Below, one piece after another: positions 4,594-57,716 of a stretch of 64,000 bases of DNA. The notes under the pieces are model-generated. The model was given only the letters and a program-made list of their open reading frames with translations. It made no database searches and was not told where the DNA came from. How positions within the stretch are numbered: the stretch's first letter is position 1; the number at the start of each line of letters is the position of its first letter. Origin of the DNA: Candidatus Tayloriibacteriota bacterium (GTDB lineage: Bacteria; Patescibacteriota; Minisyncoccia; Phycocordibacterales; PALSA-1337). The position numbers were made by a program, and so were the translations under genes. The stretch is from assembly GCA_016215455.1 (NCBI GenBank), contig JACRJP010000004.1, forward strand, positions 21,132 to 85,131, written 5' to 3'.

Positions 4594-5136
4594 CTAGTGA
4601 ACTACTCCCAGGAGATTGAAAACCTCATAGCCCTCGTGATGCACTCTCGTATTGCCATGCTGGAGCAAAGCGATTGCGAGGAATGCTCGTGCGCGCCGGA
4701 TGAAGTCGTTGGGGTTACTTGCGCAAATCTCCACTTCGAGCTGAACTAAGTCAGCGGCTTTCTCCAGTGTCTCGCAGAAACGATCTGCGTTCGGCGCTGA
4801 TGTTGTCGGGACACGGAAGTAGAGAATTCCGCCAATCACGATGATCGCAATGAATGGGATCGACAGGCCGATAAGCCCATACTTTTCCAGGGCCATGACC
4901 GACAGGTCACCTTTCAGTATCACGAGCAGAAGAAGGAGAAGAGATGCGATGATCATTCTGATTCCGATTCTCGAGCGGCAGCGGTTTTCTTTTTCCTGTG
5001 CCATGATCGTCAATCGAGCTTCCTCGATCGGGTTCACGCCAAAGCGCTTCGTGAAAGAACTTACCCAGCCTGATGGCAGGATACCTTGGTCATGTAACTG
5101 GACCAAGCGACAGAGAGCGAGAGGGCGAGTGTTCAT
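4594..5136 (-). CDS. Hypothetical membrane protein encoded in a GC-rich insert between uvrA and uvrC. The start is uncertain.
   Basis: The minus-strand ORF has a hydrophobic stretch MIIASLLLLLLVILKG...IPFIAIIVIGGILYF. The segment 4600-5130 is visibly GC-richer than its flanks. I preferred the start at the Met of MNTRPL (5136) because the longer ORF runs into the uvrC start. Confidence 0.35.
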   Translation of the reverse strand: MNTRPLALCRLVQLHDQGILPSGWVSSFTKRFGVNPIEEARLTIMAQEKENRCRSRIGIRMIIASLLLLLLVILKGDLSVMALEKYGLIGLSIPFIAIIVIGGILYFRVPTTSAPNADRFCETLEKAADLVQLEVEICASNPNDFIRRARAFLAIALLQHGNTRVHHEGYEVFNLLGVVH

Positions 5137-5209
5137 ACATGAGATTGTGGTTTTCAAGCCAACTCTGTATACTATTGAAGCACTAATATAGAATCTGTCA
5201 AGGAATACT

Positions 5210-6439
5210 GTGAAATTAGAAAACTTTGAACAATTACATATACCTGACAACCCTGGAGTATACCTATTCTATGGTTCAACATCAGATACTCAGCCACTAT
5301 ACATTGGTCGAGCAACCTCTCTTCGTGACCGTGTACGAAGCTATTTTGGTGATGATCTCATACATACTCGTGGTCCACTACTTGTTGATCTTGTAACTAA
5401 GGCTGAAACTATCAAATGGCAAGAAACCGACTCTGTTCTTGAGGCGATTATCCTTGAAGCTAATCTCATTAAGAAGTATCAACCATATTACAATACCAAA
5501 GAGAAGGATAATAAGAGTTTTAATTATGTTGTGATTACCAAAGAAGATTTTCCTCGAATACTTGTGGTGCGTGAGAGAAATTTGGAAAAAGATGCAACAG
5601 AAAAGAATTTTAAGGTACTTCATAAGTTTGGGCCGTATCCTCACACAGGAACTTTAGTTGAAGTCCTCAAGATTATTCGAAAGATGTTTCCATATCGAGA
5701 CAAATGTACACCAAATTCTGGTAAGCCATGTTTCAATCGTCAGATCGGTCTTTGTCCTGGGGTATGTAACGGGGACATTACCTCAAAAGAGTATAAAAAG
5801 AGCATTGCTCGTATAGTTCTATTTTTTGAAGGTAAGCGTTCAAAACTCATTGCAGATCTCGAAAAGGATATGACACAAGCTGCTCATGAAGAATGCTTTG
5901 AAAAAGCAACCTCACTTCGGGGTGTACTGTACAAGATCACTCATATTCATGACATGGCAATTCTTAAAGATGAACGCAATGAGACTTCAGATACTGGTTT
6001 TCGTATTGAAGCATACGATGTGGCACATCTCGGTGGTACAAATATTGCAGGGGTCATGGTGGTTGCGCATGACGGTATTCTCGAAAAAGGAGAGTATCGA
6101 AAATTTAAAATAACAACAGCAAAGAATGCTCACGAGACTCAATCACTTCGAGAGATTTTGACTCGTCGATTTTCTCATCCTGAATGGAGATTAGCTAATA
6201 TCATCGTTGTGGATGGTAATGATGTACAGAAGAATGCAGCAGAAGCGGTTCTTGCTGAGCTTAAACTGACCATTCCTGTACTCGCAGTAGTCAAAGATGC
6301 TCGTCATAAGCCACGAGATTTTATCGGTGATCCTGAACTTATTACACAGCATCGAGCAACTATCCTTAAACTTAATGCTGAGGCACACCGTTTCTCGATT
6401 TCATACCACCGTCTTTTGCGTTCACGAATTATTCGGTGA
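5210..6439 (+). CDS. uvrC: Excinuclease ABC subunit C, short form (UvrC). It has GIY-YIG, a Cys-rich/UVR region and the RNaseH-like endonuclease domain, but no C-terminal HhH.
   Basis: GVYLFYG...YIGRATSLRDRVRSY is a GIY-YIG motif. EAYDVAHLGG marks the endonuclease domain. The start codon is GTG. The protein is 409 aa, against about 600 for a canonical UvrC. Confidence 0.85.
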   Translation: MKLENFEQLHIPDNPGVYLFYGSTSDTQPLYIGRATSLRDRVRSYFGDDLIHTRGPLLVDLVTKAETIKWQETDSVLEAIILEANLIKKYQPYYNTKEKDNKSFNYVVITKEDFPRILVVRERNLEKDATEKNFKVLHKFGPYPHTGTLVEVLKIIRKMFPYRDKCTPNSGKPCFNRQIGLCPGVCNGDITSKEYKKSIARIVLFFEGKRSKLIADLEKDMTQAAHEECFEKATSLRGVLYKITHIHDMAILKDERNETSDTGFRIEAYDVAHLGGTNIAGVMVVAHDGILEKGEYRKFKITTAKNAHETQSLREILTRRFSHPEWRLANIIVVDGNDVQKNAAEAVLAELKLTIPVLAVVKDARHKPRDFIGDPELITQHRATILKLNAEAHRFSISYHRLLRSRIIR

Positions 6440-6456
6440 TATAATGATTGTCATAT

Positions 6457-7422
6457 ATGGCACTTATTAATGTCGGCGTCCTCCGTGGAGGTCCAAGTAA
6501 TGAATATGAAGTGTCTCTCCAAACAGGGGGAGTTGTTTTACGTCATCTCGATACTAATAAATATAAACCTCATGATATTTTTATTGATAAAGAAGGTGTG
6601 TGGCATATGGGAGGTACTCCTCGCCAGCCTGAGAATATTCTTTCTCAAGTTGATGTCTTGTTTAATGCTCTGCATGGAGAATATGGTGAAGATGGTAGAA
6701 TCCAACAACTTCTTGAGAGTCATGGTGCACGCTATACCGGTTCAGATGCTCTTGGTTCTGCTTTGGGAATGAATAAAGCACTCGCAAAGCAAATATTTAA
6801 GGATCACGGGATTAAAACTGCTCACTATACGGTCATCTCAGATGCAAGTAATCTTCACCAAACAGCCGTTGAACTCTTTAGAAAGTTTCCTATGCCTGCT
6901 GTTGTTAAACCTCTCGCAAGTGGTTCATCAGTAGGGGTAACAATTGCAAAAGATTTTCATAGTCTTGAAGCAGGACTTCGTCATGCATTTCAATTTGGTG
7001 ATGCTGTTATCGTCGAAGAATTTATTCCAGGCATTGAAGCAACTTGTGGAGTTATTGAAGGATATCGAGATCATGACTTATACGCTTTACCACCAGTCGA
7101 GATTCGACCTCATGGTGATCGTTTCTTTGATTATGAAGCAAAATATCAAGGGAAGTCAGAAGAGATTTGTCCTGGTAATTTTGACCATGATACAAAGGCG
7201 ATGATTGAACACTTAGCGAAAGCGGCACATAAAGCTCTTGGTTTACGACACTATTCTCGTTCAGATTTCATTGTTTCACCACGTCGAGGTGTATATATCC
7301 TTGAAGTGAACACTCTACCCGGACTTACTGAAGAATCTCTTTTCCCAAAATCACTCAATGCTGTAGGGAGTAATCTTTCGCATTTCTTTGATCATCTCAT
7401 TGAACTTGCGTTGCAAAAATAA
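6457..7422 (+). CDS. ddl: D-alanine--D-alanine ligase.
   Basis: ATP-grasp fold with VLRGGPSNEYEVSL and EVNTLPG. The ORF track starts it at TTG 6448. The ATG at 6457 is more likely. Confidence 0.9.
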   Translation: MALINVGVLRGGPSNEYEVSLQTGGVVLRHLDTNKYKPHDIFIDKEGVWHMGGTPRQPENILSQVDVLFNALHGEYGEDGRIQQLLESHGARYTGSDALGSALGMNKALAKQIFKDHGIKTAHYTVISDASNLHQTAVELFRKFPMPAVVKPLASGSSVGVTIAKDFHSLEAGLRHAFQFGDAVIVEEFIPGIEATCGVIEGYRDHDLYALPPVEIRPHGDRFFDYEAKYQGKSEEICPGNFDHDTKAMIEHLAKAAHKALGLRHYSRSDFIVSPRRGVYILEVNTLPGLTEESLFPKSLNAVGSNLSHFFDHLIELALQK

Positions 7423-25586: not shown

Positions 25587-26867
25587 ATGGAATTTGCTAC
25601 TCTTTTCAATGAGCTTAATCAGCAATTGCACTCAGACATCATCCCTCAGGTGATTTCTATCGTCGCAAATAGTGCACCACTTTGGCTCCCAATTATTCTT
25701 TGGAAAATATTTTGGCCTCTATGGGTTGACTATGTGCGTGCAGAATACTTTCTCAGTGAAGCGTATACACTGCTTGAAATAAAGCTTCCCAAAGAAACTC
25801 TCAAATCTCCTCTAGCGATGGAACTTTTCCTCACATCACTTCACCAGACAAGTGGTGAAGGAAACCTCTACGATAAGTTTTGGCTTGGTAAAACTCGACC
25901 ATGGTTTTCTCTTGAAATCGTATCCATCGAAGGTGACGTGCATTTCTTTATATGGATGAGAAAATCATGGAAAAATTTTATTGAATCATCTCTCTATGCT
26001 CAATTCCCAGGAATAGAAATATACGACCGTGAACATAGTGACTATGCACGTGCACTTCATTTTGATGGAAAGACAATGGCTGCATGGCCATGTGAACTCG
26101 AACTTACAAAACCGGATCCATATCCAATCAAGACATATGTTGACTATGGTCTCGATAAAGATCCTAAAGAGGAATTTAAAGTTGATCCCCTTGCTCCTTT
26201 GATTGAATTTCTTGGTTCAATGGGTGCAAATCAGCAGATATGGATTCAGATCATTGTACGTGCTCACAAATCAGAACGTCTTAAGGCTGGACATTTCTTT
26301 AAATACGAAGATTCATGGAAAGAAGATGCAAAGAAAGAAATCAACACCATACTCGTACGTGATGCAAAAACAAAAGTTGCAGGAACTGAAAATGAACAAG
26401 GTTTTCTTGTATCACCAACTATAACTAAAGGTGAGCAGGATGTCGTTGCTGCTCTTGAACGTTCTCTTACAAAACAAGCGTTTGATGTTGGTATTCGAGG
26501 TATATACATTGCTAATAAAAAAGAATTTTTCAGTAAATCAAACATCAGTGGACTTACAGGGTCTTTCAAACAGTTTAGTTCAGAACATTTAAATGGTTTC
26601 AAACCAAATGGAAGTGTATGGGGACCATCATTTAGTTTTCCATGGCAGGACTTTAGAGATTATCGAAAAAATAGGATGATTTCTCGTTTCCTTGCTGCAT
26701 ATCGACGACGAGCATTTTTCTTTCCACCAGAGGTGGGGAAGGCAATGGTCCTCAATACTGAAGAATTAGCAACTATCTTCCATTTCCCAGGCCAAGTAGC
26801 AGCTGCACCAACTTTGACACGTATTGGTTCAAAGAAGTCAGAAGCTCCGTCAAACCTCCCTATATAA
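25587..26867 (+). CDS. Hypothetical protein of 426 aa.
   Basis: A long ORF with no recognised motif. It overlaps the mltG start by a few nt. Confidence 0.55.
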   Translation: MEFATLFNELNQQLHSDIIPQVISIVANSAPLWLPIILWKIFWPLWVDYVRAEYFLSEAYTLLEIKLPKETLKSPLAMELFLTSLHQTSGEGNLYDKFWLGKTRPWFSLEIVSIEGDVHFFIWMRKSWKNFIESSLYAQFPGIEIYDREHSDYARALHFDGKTMAAWPCELELTKPDPYPIKTYVDYGLDKDPKEEFKVDPLAPLIEFLGSMGANQQIWIQIIVRAHKSERLKAGHFFKYEDSWKEDAKKEINTILVRDAKTKVAGTENEQGFLVSPTITKGEQDVVAALERSLTKQAFDVGIRGIYIANKKEFFSKSNISGLTGSFKQFSSEHLNGFKPNGSVWGPSFSFPWQDFRDYRKNRMISRFLAAYRRRAFFFPPEVGKAMVLNTEELATIFHFPGQVAAAPTLTRIGSKKSEAPSNLPI

Positions 26868-26868
26868 C

Positions 26869-27846
26869 ATGGATCCAATTACTCCGGCCCCTTTCTTCAG
26901 TCGATTTAAAAAAATACTTGCGACCACTATCTGTGCAGCTGTCGCTGTTGGTATTATCGCAACCTATATTATTTTCCTTCAATCTCCAAAAAACTTTCCC
27001 GAACCTGGATATATTCATATTTCCAAAGGAGAACTTTTGAGTGATGTTGCTTACCGATTAGCACAAGAGGGATACATTAAGTCTCCTTTGTTTTTTACTG
27101 TATCAGCAACTCTTCTTGGTGGTGACAAAGGAATTCTCGCTGGAGATTATTATCTTGAAAAGAAAATTAACACTCTCGCTCTTGCAGATAGATTAGCTCG
27201 TGGAGATTTTCGATTAGTTCCTATCAAGGTAACACTACCTGAAGGTACTACCGTAAGTGACATGGCAATGATTCTCATGAAAAGAATACCAGGATTTGAT
27301 GGAGCAAAGTTTGCAGCTCTTGCCCAGACTCAGAAAAAAGAAGGATATCTTTTTCCTGACACATATTTCTTTCTTCCTAACGTTACTGCTGAAGAAGTTA
27401 TTAAAGTTCTTTCTGAAAATTTCACAAAGAAGACAGAAATTCTTAAGATAGCGAAAAATAAACTTGCAGCAACTGTCATTCTTGCTTCAATTATTGAAGA
27501 AGAAGGCGCAACAACAGAATCACGTCGAATGATTTCAGGTATATTACAAAAACGTCTTGCAGAAGGCATGCTACTGCAGGTAGATGCTCCTTTTGCATAT
27601 GCTATAGGTAAGTCTACCTATGATCTTACCCTAGAAGATCTCAAGAGTACTTCACCGTACAATACCTATCGTTATAAAGGGCTTACACCTACCCCTATCA
27701 GTAATCCTGGCCTTGATTCATTACAAGCAGCTATCACACCAACACCTTCTCCTTACTATTTCTATCTCACTGAACGTGACGGAACTATCCACTATGCACG
27801 TACCTATGAAGAACATTTGGTAAATAAAGCAAAATATATCAAATAG
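26869..27846 (+). CDS. mltG: Endolytic murein transglycosylase MltG (YceG family).
   Basis: An N-terminal TM is followed by a YceG-like domain with GMLLQVDAPFAY and YNTYRYKGLTPTPISNPG. I chose the start at MDPITPAPFF. Confidence 0.85.
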   Translation: MDPITPAPFFSRFKKILATTICAAVAVGIIATYIIFLQSPKNFPEPGYIHISKGELLSDVAYRLAQEGYIKSPLFFTVSATLLGGDKGILAGDYYLEKKINTLALADRLARGDFRLVPIKVTLPEGTTVSDMAMILMKRIPGFDGAKFAALAQTQKKEGYLFPDTYFFLPNVTAEEVIKVLSENFTKKTEILKIAKNKLAATVILASIIEEEGATTESRRMISGILQKRLAEGMLLQVDAPFAYAIGKSTYDLTLEDLKSTSPYNTYRYKGLTPTPISNPGLDSLQAAITPTPSPYYFYLTERDGTIHYARTYEEHLVNKAKYIK

Positions 27847-49541: not shown

Positions 49542-50279
49542 ATGGTCATGTCGTTTGTTGTAAAGCACGAACAATTTGAAGGTCCTCTCGATCTACTTCT
49601 ATCTCTTATTGAAAAGAGAAAGCTTTTTATTAATGATATTTCACTTGCAAAAGTGACTGACGACTACATCAATCACATTAGTCAGTTTGAGAAGAGACCT
49701 CTCAATGAATCAGCCCACTTTATTCTTGTCGCATCAACATTACTTCTCATAAAGTCTCGTTCACTCCTTCCAACCCTTACTCTCACTGAAGATGAAGAGA
49801 AAGATATTCACGATCTCGAAACACGATTGAAGATTTATCAAACAATCAAAGAGGCGAGTGTGCACGTTAAAGCGCTGTTTGGTCAGAAGATGCTCTTCGC
49901 GCCATCACAAGCAAAAAAACGTGATCCTATCTTTTCTCCCGATGCATCAATGACCCTTACCAATATCTCTGAAGCAATGAAAACCATCATTGCCAATCTC
50001 CCTAAAACAGAAGCACAAGTTCCAAAAGCCATCATTCGTAAAGTCATTAGTCTTGAAGAGATGATGGACACACTCACTACTCGCATCACATCAAATCTCA
50101 AGATGTCATTCAAGGATTTTAGTCGTAGTCACCAAGCAGAGAAGGTAAATGTCATTGTTGCTTTTCTTGCGGTACTTGAATTAGTCAAACAGGGAATGGT
50201 CCATGTTAATCAACACGAAGAATTTGGTGATATTCACATGGAAACAAAAGAAATTGGTATTCCGCGTTATAATAACTAG
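49542..50279 (+). CDS. scpA: Segregation and condensation protein A.
   Basis: FEGPLDLLLSLIEKRKL. Confidence 0.9.
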   Translation: MVMSFVVKHEQFEGPLDLLLSLIEKRKLFINDISLAKVTDDYINHISQFEKRPLNESAHFILVASTLLLIKSRSLLPTLTLTEDEEKDIHDLETRLKIYQTIKEASVHVKALFGQKMLFAPSQAKKRDPIFSPDASMTLTNISEAMKTIIANLPKTEAQVPKAIIRKVISLEEMMDTLTTRITSNLKMSFKDFSRSHQAEKVNVIVAFLAVLELVKQGMVHVNQHEEFGDIHMETKEIGIPRYNN

Positions 50280-50284
50280 CACAC

Positions 50285-50857
50285 ATGACTCAACAACTTC
50301 CACTCAACACCCGTATTGAAAGCCTTCTGTTCTGGAAAGCCGAACCTATGACTCTCAAGAAAGTAGCTGAGGCTCTCGATGTATCACTTGATGAAGTAAA
50401 GGCAGCAATCGTCACACTTCGTGAACAACTCAATGGTCGCGGAATCACTCTTATTGAATTTAATGATGAGGTTACTCTTGGTACTGCTCGTAGTATGTCA
50501 GAGGATATTGAGAAATGGACCAAAGAAGAACTCTCTCGTGATCTTGGAAAAGCAGGACTTGAAACACTTGCCATTATTCTGTATCAAGGTCCAATCTCTC
50601 GTGCTGATATCGACTATATACGTGGAGTTAATTCAACATTCATTCTCCGTAATCTTCTCATTCGAGGTCTTGTAGAAAAGGTTTCAAATCCAAAAGACCA
50701 GCGTAGTTTTCTCTATCAAACAACTCTTGAATTACTGTCACATCTCGGTATATCAAAACTTGACGAGCTTCCTGATCTCGAGAAAGTAACAACAACTATC
50801 GCGGCATTCAAAGCGGGAACAGATACTACAACCCCACCTGAACCTCAACAACCCTAA
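50285..50857 (+). CDS. scpB: Segregation and condensation protein B.
   Basis: LESLLFW...EPMTLKKVAE followed by a winged helix. Confidence 0.9.
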   Translation: MTQQLPLNTRIESLLFWKAEPMTLKKVAEALDVSLDEVKAAIVTLREQLNGRGITLIEFNDEVTLGTARSMSEDIEKWTKEELSRDLGKAGLETLAIILYQGPISRADIDYIRGVNSTFILRNLLIRGLVEKVSNPKDQRSFLYQTTLELLSHLGISKLDELPDLEKVTTTIAAFKAGTDTTTPPEPQQP

Positions 50858-50860
50858 ACT

Positions 50861-52780
50861 ATGAACCGTTCTATTTTCTATTTTTTCGGAGGATCACTTC
50901 TTCTCATTATCCTCATCACTTCTTCATCAAAACTACTTGGTGTATATTCACCAAACCAAACAAAGGTATCTGCCTCATCAAAAGTACAAAATTTTCCATA
51001 TCTTAGAGAAAATTCATTACCACCGGTTCTCTCAGCTGAAAATGCTTTTTCATTACTTGTATATAAAAATGCAGCGAAAAATCCTGAAAAGGTTCTCTTT
51101 GAAAAAAATCCTGATCAACGTGTACCTATCGCTTCAGTAACTAAACTTGCAACAGCAAGTGCTGTAATCGAATCAATAGGACCTGAAACACTTATCACTA
51201 TCTCTCCTGATGCAGTAGCACAACCTGAAGGAGCAGGGCAGCTTATACAAGGAGAAGTATATCGACGCGATGAACTTCTACATCCACTTCTTATCGAATC
51301 AAGTAACGATGCTGCATATGCTTTTTCTGAAAAATTAGGTAGTACAAAATTCGTTACTGCAATGAACGCCTTCGCCCAAAGAGCAGGTATGGCATCGACG
51401 ACGTTTGCCAATCCAAGTGGTCTTGATCGGCCAGGACCCAATCTTTCAACAGCGCGTGACGTTGCTCATCTTGCTCAATATTTTTCTCAAAAACATCCTG
51501 ATCTTCTCAAGCTCACCGCCACAAAAACATATACATTCACCACAACAGCAGGAGTAACAAAAACTCTTCGTTCAACAAACGATCTTCTTAATGATACAAG
51601 CGTTCCTTTTACCATTCTCGGTGGCAAGACAGGGGAAACAAAAGCAGCAAAACAAGCACTTGTCATCGTTACGGATTCACCAATTCCTGATACGGTACTC
51701 ATTCATGTTGTCTTGCGTTCTGATAACAGAGAAAGTGACATGCGTACACTCATGAAATGGGTTCGAAATTCATATGTATGGAACAAAGAGGAAGCTTCTC
51801 TACCGACACCAAAGGTATCGGTTGATCCTTTAACAAAATTACAATGGGTAGCAGCAACAACATCAGCTCCTTGGACAGCACGCGACGCTCACTCGATTGC
51901 AATATTCAAAAATACCATGTATCTCATCGGAGGAGTTTTTGGTAATGGACTTGTTGAGAAAAACGGTATGGTGGAATACTGGAATGCTCCGCATGGAAGT
52001 GACATTTGGACAACACCAGATGGTTTCAATTGGAACAAGACAACAGATGTTGCTCCATGGTACAACCGACGTTCCGTGGGAACTATTGTTTTCCAAAATA
52101 AGTTATGGCTCATGGGAGGTTGGAGTCAGTATGATTATAAATATGACAATCGCATCTGGTGGACAGAAGATGGTGTCAAATGGAATCTTGCAACATCAAC
52201 GTCTCCTCGTTGGGAAGGACGTGAGGGTCATACTCTCAATGAATACAACGGCAAACTCTATCTCATGGGTGGTGTTGATTTCGTAAAGAGAATTACCTAC
52301 AACGATGTATGGGAATCGAGTGATGGTATTACCTGGAAACAAGTAACTGCTAATTCCGAATGGACACCTCGTTATGATCACGCTGTTGCTGTTTTTAATA
52401 ACAAACTGTATCTCACGGGAGGACTTCACATTAATACCCACGAAACAGAAAGTGAGGTATGGACTTCAACTGATGGTGCTCATTGGATAAAAAGTACTCC
52501 GGAATGGCCTTCACGCCACGGACATATTTCTCTTGCATTCAAAGATGCTCTCTGGGTCATTGGTGGTTGGCATGAAGGGAAGGGAGCTGAAAACAAAGGA
52601 ATCAATGATACCTGGTTTACTCGCGATGGTCTTCATTGGACAAAGACACAGACTGATGGTCCATGGCTCGGTCGAGAAGATCACATGGGGGATGTATTCC
52701 AAGGTACAATGTGGGTAACAGGTGGAATGGATACTAACGAACATTGGAATAATGACGTTTATTACGCCAAATTTGAATAA
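50861..52780 (+). CDS. D-alanyl-D-alanine carboxypeptidase (PBP5/S11 type) fused to a C-terminal Kelch-repeat beta-propeller.
   Basis: An N-terminal membrane anchor. SxxK is ASVTKL, SxN is ESSNDAA, KTG is GGKTGET. Six Kelch-like repeats follow, for example WTARDAHSIAIFKNTMYLIGG and WTPRYDHAVAVFNNKLYLTGG. Confidence 0.8.
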   Translation: MNRSIFYFFGGSLLLIILITSSSKLLGVYSPNQTKVSASSKVQNFPYLRENSLPPVLSAENAFSLLVYKNAAKNPEKVLFEKNPDQRVPIASVTKLATASAVIESIGPETLITISPDAVAQPEGAGQLIQGEVYRRDELLHPLLIESSNDAAYAFSEKLGSTKFVTAMNAFAQRAGMASTTFANPSGLDRPGPNLSTARDVAHLAQYFSQKHPDLLKLTATKTYTFTTTAGVTKTLRSTNDLLNDTSVPFTILGGKTGETKAAKQALVIVTDSPIPDTVLIHVVLRSDNRESDMRTLMKWVRNSYVWNKEEASLPTPKVSVDPLTKLQWVAATTSAPWTARDAHSIAIFKNTMYLIGGVFGNGLVEKNGMVEYWNAPHGSDIWTTPDGFNWNKTTDVAPWYNRRSVGTIVFQNKLWLMGGWSQYDYKYDNRIWWTEDGVKWNLATSTSPRWEGREGHTLNEYNGKLYLMGGVDFVKRITYNDVWESSDGITWKQVTANSEWTPRYDHAVAVFNNKLYLTGGLHINTHETESEVWTSTDGAHWIKSTPEWPSRHGHISLAFKDALWVIGGWHEGKGAENKGINDTWFTRDGLHWTKTQTDGPWLGREDHMGDVFQGTMWVTGGMDTNEHWNNDVYYAKFE

Positions 52781-52782
52781 AA

Positions 52783-53901
52783 ATGAGCTTAAAATCACAA
52801 CCACGAGCAAAGGGAACCTATATCGATACACCGCTTCTAGCGAGCATTTTAGGCCTTGTTATTGCTGGTTTCTTGGTATTCGTATCAGCATCACTCGGCC
52901 TTCTTGCTCGTGACACTGCTCAGTTTGGCTCAGTTGCCATGAATCAAACTATTAGTCTTATTTTAGGACTTACTTTATTCTGGATCATGAGTCGTGTGAA
53001 TTATCGTTATGTACGAAAGTACGCTTTCTATATTCTTGTTGGGGCACTTCTTTCAAACCTACTTCTCTTTATTCCAGCACTTTCACTACATCACGGAGGA
53101 GCAACACGCTGGCTCGATTTTGGTTTCGTAACCTTCCAACCATCAGAACTTTTGAAAATTGGTTTTATCATTTACGTCGCTGCATGGTTGTCCATGATTA
53201 AAGAAAAAGTTACCACACTTGGATCGGGTATAATTCCTTTCTGTATTCTTCTTGGAATCCTGAGTGTACTTCTCCTCATCCAATCAGATACCAACACACT
53301 TGCAGTGGTGGCATTTACCGGTATCTGTATGCTCTATGCTGCTGGAGCGAAACTTCGCCATATTGCTATTATTATTTTTATAGGGATTGCAGGAATCGCA
53401 ATGGTCGCTATGCTTCGACCTTACGCCCAGCAACGTATCATGACCTTCTTAAATCCTGCGAATGATCCACAAGGAGCGGGTTATCAAATCCAACAATCTC
53501 TCATTGCTATTGGTTCAGGTGGGATGTGGGGACGAGGATTCGGTCAAAGTGTCCAGAAGTTTGAATATCTTCCTGAACCAATTGGAGATTCCATTTTTGC
53601 AGTACAAGCAGAGGAGTTCGGATTCATTGGAAGTACGGTCCTTGTTCTCCTATTTGTATTCTTTGCTGTCCGATCTTTGAAAATTGCTTCCAATACCGAA
53701 GACTCCTTTGGTGGACTCTTTGTGATTGGACTTGTTATACTTATCATCACCGGATCATTCATCAATATCGGTGCGATGCTCGGACTTGTTCCACTGACCG
53801 GAAAACCACTGTTGTTTGTAAGTCATGGAGGAAGTGCCTTAATGATTATCCTCGCAAGTGTCGGTATCATCGCAAATATTTCAAAACACCAAAAATCATG
53901 A
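52783..53901 (+). CDS. ftsW: SEDS-family peptidoglycan glycosyltransferase (FtsW/RodA).
   Basis: Polytopic, with conserved SEDS motifs, and located directly upstream of murG. Confidence 0.9.
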   Translation: MSLKSQPRAKGTYIDTPLLASILGLVIAGFLVFVSASLGLLARDTAQFGSVAMNQTISLILGLTLFWIMSRVNYRYVRKYAFYILVGALLSNLLLFIPALSLHHGGATRWLDFGFVTFQPSELLKIGFIIYVAAWLSMIKEKVTTLGSGIIPFCILLGILSVLLLIQSDTNTLAVVAFTGICMLYAAGAKLRHIAIIIFIGIAGIAMVAMLRPYAQQRIMTFLNPANDPQGAGYQIQQSLIAIGSGGMWGRGFGQSVQKFEYLPEPIGDSIFAVQAEEFGFIGSTVLVLLFVFFAVRSLKIASNTEDSFGGLFVIGLVILIITGSFINIGAMLGLVPLTGKPLLFVSHGGSALMIILASVGIIANISKHQKS

Positions 53902-55025
53902 AAATACTTTTTACAGGAGGCGGTACCGGAGGACACTTCTATCCCATCATAGCGATCACTGAAGCTCTACGAGAACGAGCAAAGAATCAAAAGATTCTTA
54001 TGCCAGAACTCTATTACATGGCGCCGACGGAGTACAATCCACGGGCTCTGTTTGATAATGAACTTATTTTCGTCCCTGTTACAGCAGGGAAGATACGTCG
54101 TTATTTTTCTCTGCTCAATTTCTTCGATCTTTTCAAAACAGCCTGGGGAGTATGTTCTGCTCTATCAAGTCTCTATAAAATATATCCTGATGTTGTTTTT
54201 GGAAAAGGTGGCTATGCAAGTTTTCCAACACTTTTTGCAGCACGGCTTCTCCGTATTCCGGTTGTCATCCATGAATCAGACAGTGTTCCTGGACGAGTTA
54301 ATACATGGGCAGGAAAATTTGCTCGAAAAATCGCTATCTCATATCCGGAAGCTGCTCAATACTTCAAGAACAAAGATAGAGTTGCTTTCACGGGTAATCC
54401 AATACGTAAAGAAATAATCGCACCTCTTTCAAATGGTGCTCATGAATTCCTTGGACTCGAACAAGGTATTCCAACAATCCTTGTCCTTGGAGGTTCTCAA
54501 GGATCTCAGGTTATCAATGATGCAATCGTTGAAAGTCTCCCCAAACTTCTCGAAAACTATCAAGTCATTCACCAGACAGGAAAAAATAACTACAAAGCAG
54601 TTGAACAATTGGTGAAACTTATTCTCGATAAGGATCCAAACATTGGTCGTTACAAATCATTTGATTACCTCAACGACCTTGCTCTTCGTATGTCAGCTGG
54701 TATTGCTGATGTTGTAATATCACGTGCTGGTTCAACAATATTTGAAATAGCAGCATGGGGAGTTCCTTCAATCATCATTCCTCTATCAGAGAAAATCAGT
54801 CACGATCAGACAAAAAATGCTTTTGCATATGCTCGTTCTGGAGCGTGTATGGTTATCGAAGAACAGAATATTAGTGATACTGTCCTTACGTATGAAATAG
54901 ATACTCTCATCAAAAATACAGAACTCCGCACAAAGATGAAAGATGCTGCTCATAAATTTTCTCGACTCGATAGTGCTGATATCATTGCTCAAGCACTTCT
55001 CGAAATTGCACTCGAACACGAATAG
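53898..55025 (+). CDS. murG: UDP-N-acetylglucosamine--N-acetylmuramyl-(pentapeptide) pyrophosphoryl-undecaprenol N-acetylglucosamine transferase.
   Basis: ILFTGGGTGGHFYP and LVLGGSQGS. It overlaps ftsW by 4 nt. Confidence 0.93.
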   Translation: MKILFTGGGTGGHFYPIIAITEALRERAKNQKILMPELYYMAPTEYNPRALFDNELIFVPVTAGKIRRYFSLLNFFDLFKTAWGVCSALSSLYKIYPDVVFGKGGYASFPTLFAARLLRIPVVIHESDSVPGRVNTWAGKFARKIAISYPEAAQYFKNKDRVAFTGNPIRKEIIAPLSNGAHEFLGLEQGIPTILVLGGSQGSQVINDAIVESLPKLLENYQVIHQTGKNNYKAVEQLVKLILDKDPNIGRYKSFDYLNDLALRMSAGIADVVISRAGSTIFEIAAWGVPSIIIPLSEKISHDQTKNAFAYARSGACMVIEEQNISDTVLTYEIDTLIKNTELRTKMKDAAHKFSRLDSADIIAQALLEIALEHE

Positions 55026-55410: not shown

Positions 55411-55911
55411 ATGCAACCAAATAATTCGGGCATCAAACCATGGCAATGGACAGTGACAATCATTGTCATCATTGCCCTCATTGTATTGGGTGTATTTGTG
55501 GCTACACGAAATGACGATACGGAAACGACTAACGACCAGCAACCAGCTCAACCACAAATCGCTCAGGAAAGTAATCGTCTTGTTGTTACCGATCAATTTC
55601 CAGGAAATATCGTGTACATAACAACTGTGCAGCTTGCTCAAGATGGCTTTGTTGTCATCCACAAAGATAACGCTGGTGCACCCGGTGCTGTAATCGGTAG
55701 TGTCTATTTCCCAAAGGGAATAGGTCCTACTAAAGTTACCCTTACAGAAAAAACGGTTGATGGTGGTACTTACTATGCAATGCTCCACAGTGATAGTAAT
55801 GCGGATAAACAATTCTCTGAAACAACAGACGCAACTCTCAAAGATACAAAGGGAATGGTTATCATGAAGTCTTTCAAGGCTCGTCTTGATCTTCCCGAAG
55901 ACAAAGGTTAG
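55411..55911 (+). CDS. Membrane-anchored hypothetical protein.
   Basis: One N-terminal TM (WTVTIIVIIALIVLGVFVA) and an extracytoplasmic domain of about 120 aa. Confidence 0.55.
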   Translation: MQPNNSGIKPWQWTVTIIVIIALIVLGVFVATRNDDTETTNDQQPAQPQIAQESNRLVVTDQFPGNIVYITTVQLAQDGFVVIHKDNAGAPGAVIGSVYFPKGIGPTKVTLTEKTVDGGTYYAMLHSDSNADKQFSETTDATLKDTKGMVIMKSFKARLDLPEDKG

Positions 55912-56007
55912 AGCGTAGAGCAAAAAGGGAAGTGACTCCCCCAACTCACCCATAAAAAGGGTGAGTTTTGCATGGTATACTTGAGAGCGTTTCTACTGAT
56001 ATATTTC

Positions 56008-57312
56008 ATGAAAATATCCACTCCAACATTACAAATTATCATCACTTGTATTCTTCTTGCAGGTATCGCTCTGAGTCAATCGTTACTTCCACACACAGAA
56101 ATAGCTCGAGCTCAATCGGTTGATGAATTGAAACAAAAGATCGATACGAGTGCAGCGAATATCAAGAAACTTGAGGAGGAAATCGCTCATTATCAAACAC
56201 AACTTACCGAAACAAGTAAGCAAGCAAACACCCTCCAAAATACCATCAAAACTCTCGATATCTCAAAAAAGAAACTTCAGACTGACATTACTCTCACACA
56301 AGGGAAAATAAGTCTTACGAGTAGTCAGATACAGCAACTCAATAAGGATATTATTGCAAAAGAAAATCAGATTGGTAAAAACTTCGACTCTGTAGGGGTG
56401 AGCCTTCGTAGTATTTACAAAGATAGTTCTGAGAGTGTCGTGGAATCGTTATTAGGTGCTGATACTCTTGCAGGATTTACAAGTAACATCGAAACTCTTT
56501 CTCGACTTCAGGTTGAGGTTCGTAATCATATTGATGAACTTACTGAATACAAAAAAGATCTTGAGCGCTCAAAGAAATCTCTTGAGGGCAAGAAACAAGA
56601 TCTAGTACTCTATACTAATGATTTAAGTGATCAGAAACGTCTCGTTGAAAACACAACACAAGAAAAAGCTTCTATTCTGACTCAGACAAAAAACCAAGAG
56701 TCTGCATATAAAACAATTCTAAAAAATAAACAGTTACAAAAAGAACAGTTTGAAAAAGAAATGTTCGCATACGAATCTGCACTTAAGATTGCTGTTGACC
56801 CTAATAGTATTCCTTCAGCTGGTACTGGAGTGCTTTCATGGCCTCTAGCTAAGGTTATCATTACCCAGTATTTCGGTAATACTTCTTTTGCAACAAAAAA
56901 TCCTCAAATCTACAACGGTAAAGGCCACACTGGTGTCGACTTTGGAGCTCCAACTGGTACGAAAGTAAATGCTGCTCTCACAGGTATTGTCACCGGTACT
57001 GGTAACACTGACGAAATCCGTGGGTGCTATTCATATGGTAAATGGGTCTTCATTAAACATCCAAACGGTCTATCAACCCTATACGCACACCTTTCACTCA
57101 TCAGTGTCAAAGTCGGTGATGTTGTCGCCACAGGTCAATTGATTGGATACAGTGGTAATACCGGCTACTCTACAGGTCCACACCTTCATTTCGGTGTATA
57201 TGCAACCCAAGGTGTGCGCATTACTCGATTTGAGAATAGTGTGAATTGTAAAGGTGCACTCATTCCACTTGCTGATCCAACCGCATACCTTAATCCACTG
57301 TCATTCCTTTAA
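56008..57312 (+). CDS. M23-family peptidoglycan metalloendopeptidase with an N-terminal coiled coil (EnvC/LytM-like).
   Basis: A signal or TM segment, a long coiled coil, then HTGVDFGAP...HLHFGVY for the LytM domain. The track start is 55972. Confidence 0.85.
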   Translation: MKISTPTLQIIITCILLAGIALSQSLLPHTEIARAQSVDELKQKIDTSAANIKKLEEEIAHYQTQLTETSKQANTLQNTIKTLDISKKKLQTDITLTQGKISLTSSQIQQLNKDIIAKENQIGKNFDSVGVSLRSIYKDSSESVVESLLGADTLAGFTSNIETLSRLQVEVRNHIDELTEYKKDLERSKKSLEGKKQDLVLYTNDLSDQKRLVENTTQEKASILTQTKNQESAYKTILKNKQLQKEQFEKEMFAYESALKIAVDPNSIPSAGTGVLSWPLAKVIITQYFGNTSFATKNPQIYNGKGHTGVDFGAPTGTKVNAALTGIVTGTGNTDEIRGCYSYGKWVFIKHPNGLSTLYAHLSLISVKVGDVVATGQLIGYSGNTGYSTGPHLHFGVYATQGVRITRFENSVNCKGALIPLADPTAYLNPLSFL

Positions 57313-57666: not shown

Positions 57667-57688
57667 TATCGTAAATAAAAAATCATCA

Positions 57689-57716
57689 AACCATGCCACT
57701 ATGCGTGGTTTTTTGA
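57689..57716. terminator. Bidirectional intrinsic terminator.
   Basis: Stem AACCATGC/GCGTGGTT with one G-T wobble, followed by TTTTTT. It sits between convergent genes. Confidence 0.55.

Follow-up and report, generated by a model that had tools for sequence, protein, structure and literature searches.

PBP5 carries a C-terminal beta-sandwich (PF07943) and a C-terminal amphipathic anchor, and E. coli PBP5 (DacA) and PBP6/6b have a Peptidase_S11 catalytic domain with SxxK, SxN and KTG motifs in common with the protein described here. The closest solved S11 relatives of this protein are single-domain or C-domain-less enzymes, namely M. tuberculosis DacB2 (Rv2911; 4rye/4p0m) and DacB1 (Rv3330; 4ppr), the catalytic domain of B. 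subtilis DacB/PBP5* (3mfd), the Streptomyces K15 DD-transpeptidase (1skf/1es2), L. monocytogenes Lmo2812 (5zqa) and a PBP7-type DD-endopeptidase (6muq, 6azi). The nearest solved relatives of its propeller half are the propellers of LZTR1 and KLHDC2/3/10, which are ligand-binding, non-catalytic and make use of their top face (PMC11568203). NanM/YjhT is a periplasmic Kelch-fold sialic-acid mutarotase, the conserved residues of which are unlike those of the propeller considered here. No description of a combined S11/Kelch architecture was found in the searchable literature, in which few subscription papers were covered, and to our knowledge there has been hardly any experimental study of how peptidoglycan matures in members of the Candidate Phyla Radiation.

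The fusion protein and its gene neighbourhood

The window (the whole stretch of 64,000 nucleotides analysed), which comes from an ultra-small bacterium of the Patescibacteria, carries a gene for a membrane-anchored fusion of an S11 DD-peptidase and a Kelch beta-propeller, modelled by AF2 with a pLDDT of 91.3 (Table 1). Its N-terminal hydrophobic helix, MNRSIFYFFGGSLLLIILITSSSKLLG, is probably an uncleaved signal-anchor and is followed by a low-confidence tether (aa 27-40, pLDDT<50); a comparable hydrophobic N-terminal segment is present in all homologues, fused and split.

Table 1 Features of the fusion gene and of its neighbours in the window
Feature	Position	Strand	Residues (aa)	Basis or remark
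scpA	49542-50279	+		Pfam; upstream of fusion gene
scpB	50285-50857	+		Pfam; upstream of fusion gene
Whole fusion gene	50861-52780	+	1-639	ORF list, Pfam, AF2 model
N-terminal hydrophobic helix	50867-50935	+	3-25	Sequence, AF2 model
Peptidase_S11 penicillin-binding catalytic domain	51023-51775	+	~55-305	Pfam match aa 74-287
SxxK motif (SVTK)	51134-51145	+	92-95	Regex on translation
SxN motif (SSN)	51299-51307	+	147-149	Regex on translation
KTG motif (inside GGKTGET)	51626-51634	+	256-258	Regex on translation
Fusion linker	51776-51841	+	306-327	Alignment with split S11 protein of L001
Six-blade Kelch beta-propeller	51842-52777	+	328-639	
Propeller blades (approximate)			337-395, 399-445, 450-496, 500-545, 548-595, 601-639	Closing strand 328-333
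Stop codon of fusion gene	52778-52780	+		
FtsW/RodA-family SEDS gene	52783-53901	+		Pfam; downstream of fusion gene
murG	53898-55025	+		Pfam; downstream of SEDS gene
DUF7282 protein	55411-55911	+		Pfam; order kept in L001, L006, L007
Coiled-coil M23 peptidase	55972-57312	+		Pfam; order kept in L001, L006, L007

The enzyme half matched PF00768 with 133 bits against a cutoff of 27.6, over profile positions 21-237 of 239, and contains the SxxK, SxN and KTG motifs in the expected order, which bears out the assignment made in an earlier note on this DNA to the low-molecular-weight S11 penicillin-binding proteins. Ser92 and Lys95 are the predicted catalytic pair. The SxxK region is kept as PIAS[VIL][TSV]KL in all fused homologues and the S-x-N in most homologues, and the GGKTGET sequence around KTG is conserved family-wide. 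The penicilloyl-serine transferase fold of this half is nearer to that of DD-peptidases than to that of class A beta-lactamases, and membership in the latter class was rejected.

At the same time, the "PBP5-type" label given by the earlier note proved too narrow. No Pfam match to the PBP5_C domain was found at E<=1 in the protein, the anchor is the N-terminal helix, the C-terminus is occupied by the Kelch propeller, and the scores fell far below all NCBIfam equivalog cutoffs (DacA, 55.5 bits against 694; DacC, 60.8 against 765; DacD, 66.9 against 610; PbpG-type endopeptidase, 85.3 against 294), so that a PBP5/DacA-type carboxypeptidase was rejected. The S11 domain is predicted to be a serine DD-peptidase, which may act as a carboxypeptidase, an endopeptidase or a transpeptidase.

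The second half matched the Kelch profiles PF24681 (83.3 bits, cutoff 50), PF24981 (56.4, cutoff 50) and PF01344 (52.8, cutoff 20.1). Residues 328-637 of the AF2 model form 24 strands, mostly with pLDDT >90, arranged in six blades of four antiparallel strands each, and the ring is closed by the terminal strand, in agreement with the six-blade propeller proposed earlier. In total, 279 residues of the modelled propeller could be superposed on the Kelch domain of LZTR1 (2.2 A).

The position between scpAB and ftsW-murG, also claimed earlier, was confirmed by Pfam matches of the neighbouring genes. The fusion gene lies 2 nt from the SEDS gene, which overlaps murG by 4 nt, and because of this tight packing the three genes probably form one operon. 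The scpA-scpB order upstream is kept in loci L001, L006, L007 and L033 and in the P0009 contig, and the region from scpAB through the M23 peptidase gene is a cell-wall neighbourhood. In a consensus scan, a promoter-like site was located just before scpA and the best terminator-like hairpin of the + strand at 57688-57711; as consensus matches, these sites are compatible with one long operon.

Split and fused forms of a conserved gene pair

In close relatives with matching synteny, the S11 and propeller genes adjoin, each product having its own membrane anchor. The order in locus L001 is scpA-scpB-S11 (313 aa)-propeller (369 aa, with its own TM segment)-ftsW, and in the P0009 contig scpA-scpB-S11 (304 aa)-propeller (373 aa, with its own TM segment)-ftsW, the propellers being 64% and 70% identical, respectively, to that of the window; both split pairs fill the same slot as the fused gene. 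The split S11 protein of L001 ends with ...NWVNKSFTW and a stop, which aligns with ...KWVRNSYVW307 of the window protein, where the sequence goes on as NKEEASLPTPKVSVDPLTKLQW. The fusion in this junction alignment starts exactly at the end of the split S11 protein, and the linker takes the place that is filled in the split relatives by a stop codon, a spacer between the genes and the membrane anchor of the propeller. In the window gene, a conserved Patescibacteria pair, an S11 gene followed by a propeller gene, is present in fused form, and the architecture called unusual in the earlier note is rare overall but is not an isolated oddity. The propeller is conserved more than the enzyme domain (84% against 72% identity to P0002, and ~69% against ~38% to the P0003 clade).

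The presence of two separate genes at exactly this position in close relatives would also be expected if a sequencing or assembly error had merged adjacent genes in the window. This explanation is already refuted by independent assemblies that carry the fused ORF, and its probability is negligible: the ORF recurs unchanged in a Logan assembly of run SRR12113407 and at 99% identity in SRR21713533, a third contig has a fused ORF of 74% identity, fused forms occur additionally in 2 + 6 species-representative genomes, and the membrane anchor of the propeller has been cleanly deleted and not read through.

The fusion is, moreover, recurrent. Among the best 120 database matches, 13 clusters had the S11>Kelch order, 7 clusters the Kelch>S11 order and ~17 were stand-alone TM-propellers, and in an NJ tree the fused forms fell into several separate clades, beside split forms with matching gene order. 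The S11 gene was fused to the propeller or was the next gene in 19 of the 30 Patescibacteria species-representative loci, and S11, VanY or YkuD, three non-homologous stem-peptide enzymes, was fused or within two genes in 21 of the 30. In L033, the propeller is fused to a VanY metallo-DD-carboxypeptidase and lies between scpB and mraY-ftsW-murG; in L010, S11, propeller and YkuD are encoded by three adjacent genes, and in L024 YkuD is one gene away. A propeller/YkuD L,D-transpeptidase fusion (P0259) and a propeller/VanY/S11 fusion (P0160) came, like P0165, P0170, P0194 and P0225, from an exhaustive HMMER search with the full protein, the 33,247 matches of which were headed by very large proteins with multiple propellers (up to 7,798 aa) and are unsuited to counting fusions. 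Catalytic motifs are retained in the fused relatives. This propeller subfamily has been joined to S11 more than once, with either domain in front, and to VanY and YkuD as well. Note that the propeller can occur without an adjacent partner, since no stem-peptide enzyme was encoded up to 6 kb away from the propeller gene in five complete loci (L016, L027, L029, L031 and L037), and the sole S11-like match of L015 was partial, on the opposite strand and ~1.5 kb away.

These counts bear on whether the propeller might tie the DD-peptidase not to the wall but to the synthase, i.e., the complex of FtsW/RodA with a class B PBP or some other part of the divisome. The short distance to the FtsW/RodA gene, with murG next, the conservation of the ftsW-murG slot in the clade of the window and in L033, the location of P0018 beside mraY and a Mur ligase gene and of P0020 ~4 kb from mraZ-mraW-ftsI, and the binding of proteins or peptides by the closest solved Kelch propellers would all suit such a docking role. 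We nevertheless consider it unlikely, since an FtsW homologue was present in the flanks of only 7 of 32 Patescibacteria loci (6 of the 30 species-representative ones and L001), so that the constant partner of the propeller, judged by 21 against 6 of 30 loci, is the peptidase and not ftsW; YkuD, to which the propeller is also joined, is moreover not known as a divisome subunit. The earlier note suggested targeting to the divisome, to a glycan or protein partner or to a host surface; from these gene arrangements, we favour a role linked to enzymes that process stem peptides at large, and not to ftsW in particular.

Signature residues of the propeller subfamily

The propeller of the window holds every signature residue of the S11-associated Patescibacteria subfamily defined here, to which it thereby belongs: D342, Y373, R404-S405, E455-G456, D506, G554, G604 and E606-D607, together with the blade-1 insert 362-373. 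Each signature position was conserved at >=0.92 across 36 aligned sequences of the Patescibacteria group, the window included, and the set is common to fused, split and VanY-fused forms. In each blade, the residues immediately precede the innermost strand, and their placement on the binding face is predicted from Kelch topology and the DSSP string. This signature is absent from the Planctomycetota, Bacteroidota and Verrucomicrobiota homologues, and those of Planctomycetota and Bacteroidota have their own, equally conserved but different residue set. An S11 gene is located directly upstream of the propeller homologue in the Verrucomicrobia locus L048; since this propeller carries the signature of the non-Patescibacteria family, the adjacency is probably incidental.

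The many conserved acidic and basic residues of the propeller would also fit a catalytic site, and by analogy with propeller sialidases or NanM the propeller itself could act on a wall glycan or sugar acid, the fusion then combining two activities. This seems improbable. Pfam assigned the propeller to Kelch families only, with no enzyme-family profile matched, and its likeness to NanM/YjhT (2uvk) is weak (profile E=4e-5, 25.7 bits) and exceeded by that to non-catalytic Kelch propellers; as the propeller half additionally gave no NCBIfam match to any propeller family, NanM/YjhT included, a sialic-acid mutarotase was rejected. Every blade additionally carries W-x-S/T-x-D-G-x-x-W. Both the per-blade Arg and the Asp-box-like motif are common to the wider homologous propeller family sampled, and since this Arg also belongs to the general Kelch motif, it is probably structural.

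As the distal end of the protein, the propeller could alternatively direct the peptidase onto a host cell, the peptidoglycan of which would then be remodelled in place of the bacterium's own; cultivated Patescibacteria are described as episymbionts (PMC11623550). Such targeting is very unlikely: the fused and split proteins are held on the membrane of the producer by the N-terminal helix through a tether of roughly 15-40 residues, a short reach that argues against it, and the gene lies within a probable housekeeping operon with scpAB, ftsW and murG. Moreover, the modelled face residues are invariant over very diverse Patescibacteria, presumably with different hosts, which would be better suited to a universal self ligand than to variable host surfaces.

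Proposed role and comparison with known systems

The best reading of the whole system is a two-part module for maturation of the cell's own wall, with the propeller as a ligand- or partner-binding accessory. The enzyme is extracytoplasmic and held on the bacterium's own membrane by its N-terminal helix, and its Ser92 would be acylated by a peptidoglycan stem peptide through the D-Ala-D-Ala terminus, followed by hydrolysis. The propeller, its conserved partner, is in the usual case a protein of its own, encoded next to the enzyme and anchored in the membrane, and is here covalently joined without its own anchor. It would act in complex with the enzyme, most likely as a non-catalytic recognition module; a charged and conserved patch in the middle of one face would contact a wall feature, be it the stem peptide or the glycan, or, with lower probability, part of the synthase. 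Through such binding, the enzyme that trims the stem peptide would be placed or controlled as the wall is built and the cell divides. Taken as a whole, this explanation, a self-membrane-tethered S11 DD-peptidase with a non-catalytic recognition propeller, has a somewhat better than even chance of being correct. A rigid interdomain interface is unsupported, because the pTM of the reverse-order fusion P0020 (Kelch>S11) was 0.55, against 0.70 for the window protein, and in its model both domains are confident but the linker is of low confidence.

More tentatively, and with the odds rather against it, the propeller may be a new kind of peptidoglycan-recognition or peptidase-activating domain, the charged pocket of which would bind the free stem-peptide end or a universal wall feature and serve S11, VanY and YkuD. 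If this is true, the propeller would be needed by these enzymes or would regulate them, in analogy to the dedicated PBP activators found elsewhere. Binding of peptidoglycan or activation of peptidases would add a new fold to the domains known to bind the wall or to regulate PBPs (LysM, SPOR, PG_binding_1, SH3b, PASTA and the Lpo proteins), and the propeller would then also be a marker for annotating ~17 clusters of stand-alone propellers, now "hypothetical", from the best 120 matches and many proteins labelled merely "serine hydrolase". Should the propeller prove inert, the protein would come down to a conventional low-molecular-weight PBP that carries an atypical extra domain. The new element here is that the fusion recurs and that one Patescibacteria propeller subfamily is repeatedly associated with S11, VanY and YkuD; the fused and split pattern predicts physical cooperation of a Kelch propeller with enzymes of the stem-peptide terminus and suggests that the enzymes trimming peptidoglycan peptides have a helper domain not described so far. 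Since Patescibacteria genomes are minimal, a conserved and repeatedly fused accessory is probably important.

Other multidomain enzymes of Patescibacteria (PG_binding_1+VanY+S11, S11+YkuD and S11+CapA) have the S11 module in common with the window protein, and in L011, L013 and L017 a PG_binding_1+VanY+S11 protein is encoded beside a stand-alone propeller gene. The partner domains of these enzymes are known peptidoglycan binders or enzymes, whereas the Kelch propeller is without a described cell-wall role. The propellers of LZTR1, KLHDC2, KLHDC3 and KLHDC10 are merely 17-22% identical to that of the window and belong to cytosolic ubiquitin-ligase adaptors with BTB/BACK or BC-box parts, in contrast to the extracytoplasmic window protein, which has neither; the sequence ends with the propeller, so that a BC box is excluded, and the protein is not a KLHDC-type C-degron receptor. 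A clade-invariant R-R-S (403-405) is present in the window propeller, and the KLHDC receptors have a top-face R/F-S-R carboxylate anchor. On the enzyme side, the window protein differs from E. coli PBP5 in having no PF07943 domain, in being anchored N-terminally and in the E-T, instead of H-T, that follows KTG. The single-domain or C-domain-less S11 enzymes listed above are all without a propeller, whereas in the window protein the S11 domain is preceded by a membrane helix at the N-terminus and followed by a Kelch domain of 312 aa.

The fused protein and its probable operon

The studied gene is a genuine ORF of 639 aa, whose translation has a single SxxK in PBP context (PIASVTKL), a single SSN and a single KTG, followed by six repeats with a terminal GG doublet; the C-terminal half matched several Kelch families in Pfam above their thresholds. 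The earlier note had read the product as a PBP5-type D,D-carboxypeptidase joined to a six-blade Kelch propeller. The propeller was borne out by the AlphaFold2 model, obtained from a 36-sequence alignment (mean pLDDT 91.3, pTM 0.70), which gives six four-stranded blades and closes the ring in the usual Kelch manner, strand 328-333 completing the last blade as its fourth strand. The N-terminal domain proved to be a PBP, as proposed, with 133 bits for Peptidase_S11 in Pfam and an essentially nil NCBIfam score as a class A beta-lactamase. The label "PBP5-type" was imprecise: the S11 catalytic domain is there, without the C-terminal domain of PBP5 and with an N-terminal membrane anchor. Named DD-peptidases in NCBIfam gave sub-threshold matches only, the top one being a PBP7-type endopeptidase (85 bits; cutoff 294). 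As a Peptidase S11 member the catalytic half is ordinary, and it is closest to forms without the PBP5 C-domain.

Features of the fused protein (aa) and of the window (nt)
Feature	Position	Source or remark
Fused S11-Kelch ORF	50861-52780 (+)	
Helix	aa 3-25	AlphaFold2 model
Tether, low-confidence	aa 27-40	AlphaFold2 model
Alpha/beta domain (short linker follows)	to about aa 305	AlphaFold2 model
Peptidase_S11	aa 74-287	Pfam, E=1.5e-38
SxxK serine	S92	translation
SSN	aa 147-149	translation
KTG	aa 256-258	translation
Propeller, 24 beta-strands	between aa 328 and 637	AlphaFold2 model
GG doublets of the six repeats	aa 357, 419, 470, 520, 568, 621	translation
DUF7282 protein	55411-55911 (+)	after murG
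Coiled-coil M23 peptidase	55972-57312 (+)	after murG; EnvC-like architecture
Best + strand terminator-like hairpin	57688-57711	consensus scan
YceG/MltG-family protein	26824-27846 (+)	23 kb upstream of the fused gene
Leucyl-tRNA synthetase, 1167 aa	20902-24405 (+)	NUDIX (aa 388-505) and HAD_2 (aa 640-795) matches embedded between catalytic and anticodon-binding parts; unusual for an aminoacyl-tRNA synthetase
Sigma70_r4 + HARE-HTH, 349 aa	24484-25533 (+)	unusual combination
ATP-cone + Mrr_cat restriction-endonuclease-like domain, 279 aa	29609-30448 (+)	unusual combination

The neighbouring genes encode ScpA, ScpB, an FtsW/RodA-family SEDS protein, MurG, a DUF7282 protein and a coiled-coil M23 peptidase. 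Co-transcription of the fused gene with its neighbours is likely, because the flanking spacers measure only 3 nt and 2 nt; a consensus scan, which is weak evidence, put a promoter-like site directly ahead of scpA, and on the + strand its best terminator-like hairpin did not come until after the M23 gene. The DUF7282 and M23 genes keep their position after murG in the related loci L001, L006 and L007, so DUF7282 may be a further cell-wall or division factor in the clade of the window. YceG/MltG proteins are peptidoglycan strand terminases in other bacteria, and the YceG/MltG-family gene shows that further wall-maturation functions are kept by this genome.

Gene pair, fusions and partner enzymes

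In the window, two genes that form a conserved pair have been joined into one. The contig of the related stand-alone propeller protein P0013 (L001) has the order scpA-scpB-S11 (313 aa)-propeller (369 aa)-ftsW-murG-DUF7282-...-M23, that is, the order of the window with two genes in place of one, and the contig of the closest stand-alone propeller, P0009, likewise has two genes there. The split S11 protein ends (NWVNKSFTW, then stop) precisely at KWVRNSYVW307 of the window protein, which runs on as NKEEASLPTPKVSVDPLTKLQW329; the membrane anchor that the propeller has in the split form is missing from the fusion. That the fusion is an assembly artefact has practically no probability and was ruled out by matching ORFs: an identical one in a Logan assembly of run SRR12113407 (possibly the source of the window itself, possibly not), a 99% identical one in another run and a 74% identical one in a third contig.

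A word-indexed protein search gave 217 relatives, and classification of the best 120 with both query halves yielded 13 clusters in the S11>Kelch order, 7 in the opposite order and about 17 stand-alone proteins of a membrane helix and propeller (~360-410 aa); six stand-alone propeller proteins are 62-70% identical to that of the window. For the reverse-order fusion P0020 the modelled fold is confident (pLDDT 89.8), and at a pTM of 0.55 it offers no evidence of a fixed interdomain interface. An exhaustive search with the fused protein was dominated by giant proteins (P0121-P0132; 2,586-7,798 aa) with 10-22 stretches that matched the same type of propeller repeat.

Scanning one genome per GTDB species with the propeller alignment returned more than 594 relatives. 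The ~30 closest (at least 35% identity) are Patescibacteria without exception (Paceibacteria/Parcubacteria-type MAGs, Nealsonbacteria, Kaiserbacteria, Giovannonibacteria and others), and all the others come from Planctomycetota, Bacteroidota, Verrucomicrobiota, WOR-3 and other phyla. In 30 Patescibacteria loci, one genome per species, partners were recorded by tblastn and ORF tracing. S11 was fused upstream of the propeller in two loci and downstream in six, and was the adjacent upstream gene in eight and the adjacent downstream gene in three more; in L013 and L017 it is part of a PG_binding_1+VanY+S11 protein, an architecture also seen in the upstream neighbour at L011. In L033, a propeller fused to a VanY (M15) metallo-DD-carboxypeptidase, which replaces S11, occupies the place between scpB and mraY-ftsW-murG. 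P0160 combines propeller, VanY and S11, and P0259 joins the propeller to YkuD (L,D-transpeptidase); S11, propeller and YkuD are consecutive genes in L010, and YkuD lies one gene away in L024. Altogether, a stem-peptide enzyme was fused to the propeller or at most two genes off in 21 of the 30 loci. Of the other nine, three run into a contig end, five are complete and have no such partner within 6 kb of the propeller, and the last, L015, shows no more than a partial S11-like match, about 1.5 kb off and on the other strand.

An approximate neighbour-joining tree of propeller domains, computed without support values, divides the fused forms among roughly three clades with the S11>Kelch order and at least two with Kelch>S11, and every one of these clades lies close to split forms of matching gene order. 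That fusion has happened independently in either order, and with three non-homologous enzymes that all work on the stem-peptide end, is classical evidence that the partnership is functional and probably physical. Docking of the propeller to a SEDS/bPBP synthase would suit the ftsW gene beside it in the window, and is considered unlikely; an FtsW homologue occurs in the flanks of only 7 of the 32 Patescibacteria loci tabulated (six of the 30 and L001).

The candidate binding face and the proposed mechanism

The scaffold, namely the blade tryptophans, GG doublet, per-blade Arg and Asp-box-like W-x-S-x-D-G-x-x-W, is common to Planctomycetota/Bacteroidota homologues. Near-invariant and specific to Patescibacteria are D342, Y373 (within a clade-specific insert, 362-373), R404-S405, E455-G456, D506, G554, G604 and E606-D607, which are identical in fused forms of either order, split forms and the VanY-fused form; other phyla have a different, equally conserved set. 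The Patescibacteria residues stand beside the per-blade Arg and directly precede the innermost strand. By established Kelch topology, combined with DSSP of the model, they would lie on the face that binds ligands, in the loop around the entrance to the central channel.

The propeller is better conserved than the catalytic domain (84% versus 72% identity to P0002; ~69% versus ~38% to the P0003 clade), a pattern that favours a ligand or partner both specific and universal. In the fused proteins of that sister clade, P0003-P0008 (553-564 aa; L006:5233-6933, L007:5182-6933), about 32 residues of S11 are missing between the SxxK helix and SxN (SITK-to-SSN distance 23 residues versus 55), with SxxK, SxN and KTG all retained; the gap may point to a change in how substrates gain access or to an enzyme in decay, the propeller staying ~69% identical.

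Planctomycetota/Bacteroidota/Verrucomicrobiota homologues form a separate propeller family (most of L038-L085, e.g. L040:6001-6906, L053:5287-6207), whose near-invariant blade-start signature, RDQ / SDL / R[IL]AA / RAYH / RLWF / ERHEH, suggests that this family has a conserved ligand or catalytic site of its own. In the Verrucomicrobia MAG contig VFKE01000047.1 (L048), a 347-aa Peptidase_S11 gene (4750-5793; Pfam E=1e-49) is directly upstream of a propeller homologue (5875-6918); this adjacency may be coincidental, because that propeller bears the other family's signature.

The nearest solved propellers are ligand receptors, and a catalytic role for the propeller itself is regarded as quite improbable. 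Since KLHDC2/3/10 hold the terminal carboxylate of a peptide with their top face and an R/F-S-R element (PMC11568203), recognition of a D-Ala-terminated stem peptide is an attractive, unproven possibility. The reading given the best chance, somewhat above even, is that of an S11 DD-peptidase tethered outside the cell's own membrane, which would act by serine-acyl chemistry on stem peptides of new peptidoglycan, with the propeller as a recognition or regulatory partner attached covalently in this lineage. That the protein targets a host surface, as the earlier note had also allowed, is very improbable.

Relation to known enzymes and propellers

Such proteins are publicly annotated as "serine hydrolase", "hypothetical protein" or, wrongly, "leucine-zipper-like transcriptional regulator 1", and neither the S11-Kelch architecture nor the gene pair was found described in the searchable literature. 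What is new here is a phylum-specific accessory domain on a low-molecular-weight PBP, the enzyme itself being ordinary; the recurrent propeller partnership offers a clean, testable lead into the cell-wall biology of an almost unstudied phylum. Compared with the named E. coli enzymes, the catalytic half is the ortholog of none, and the propeller is a genuine Kelch propeller, yet it falls outside the KLHDC, LZTR1 and NanM families.
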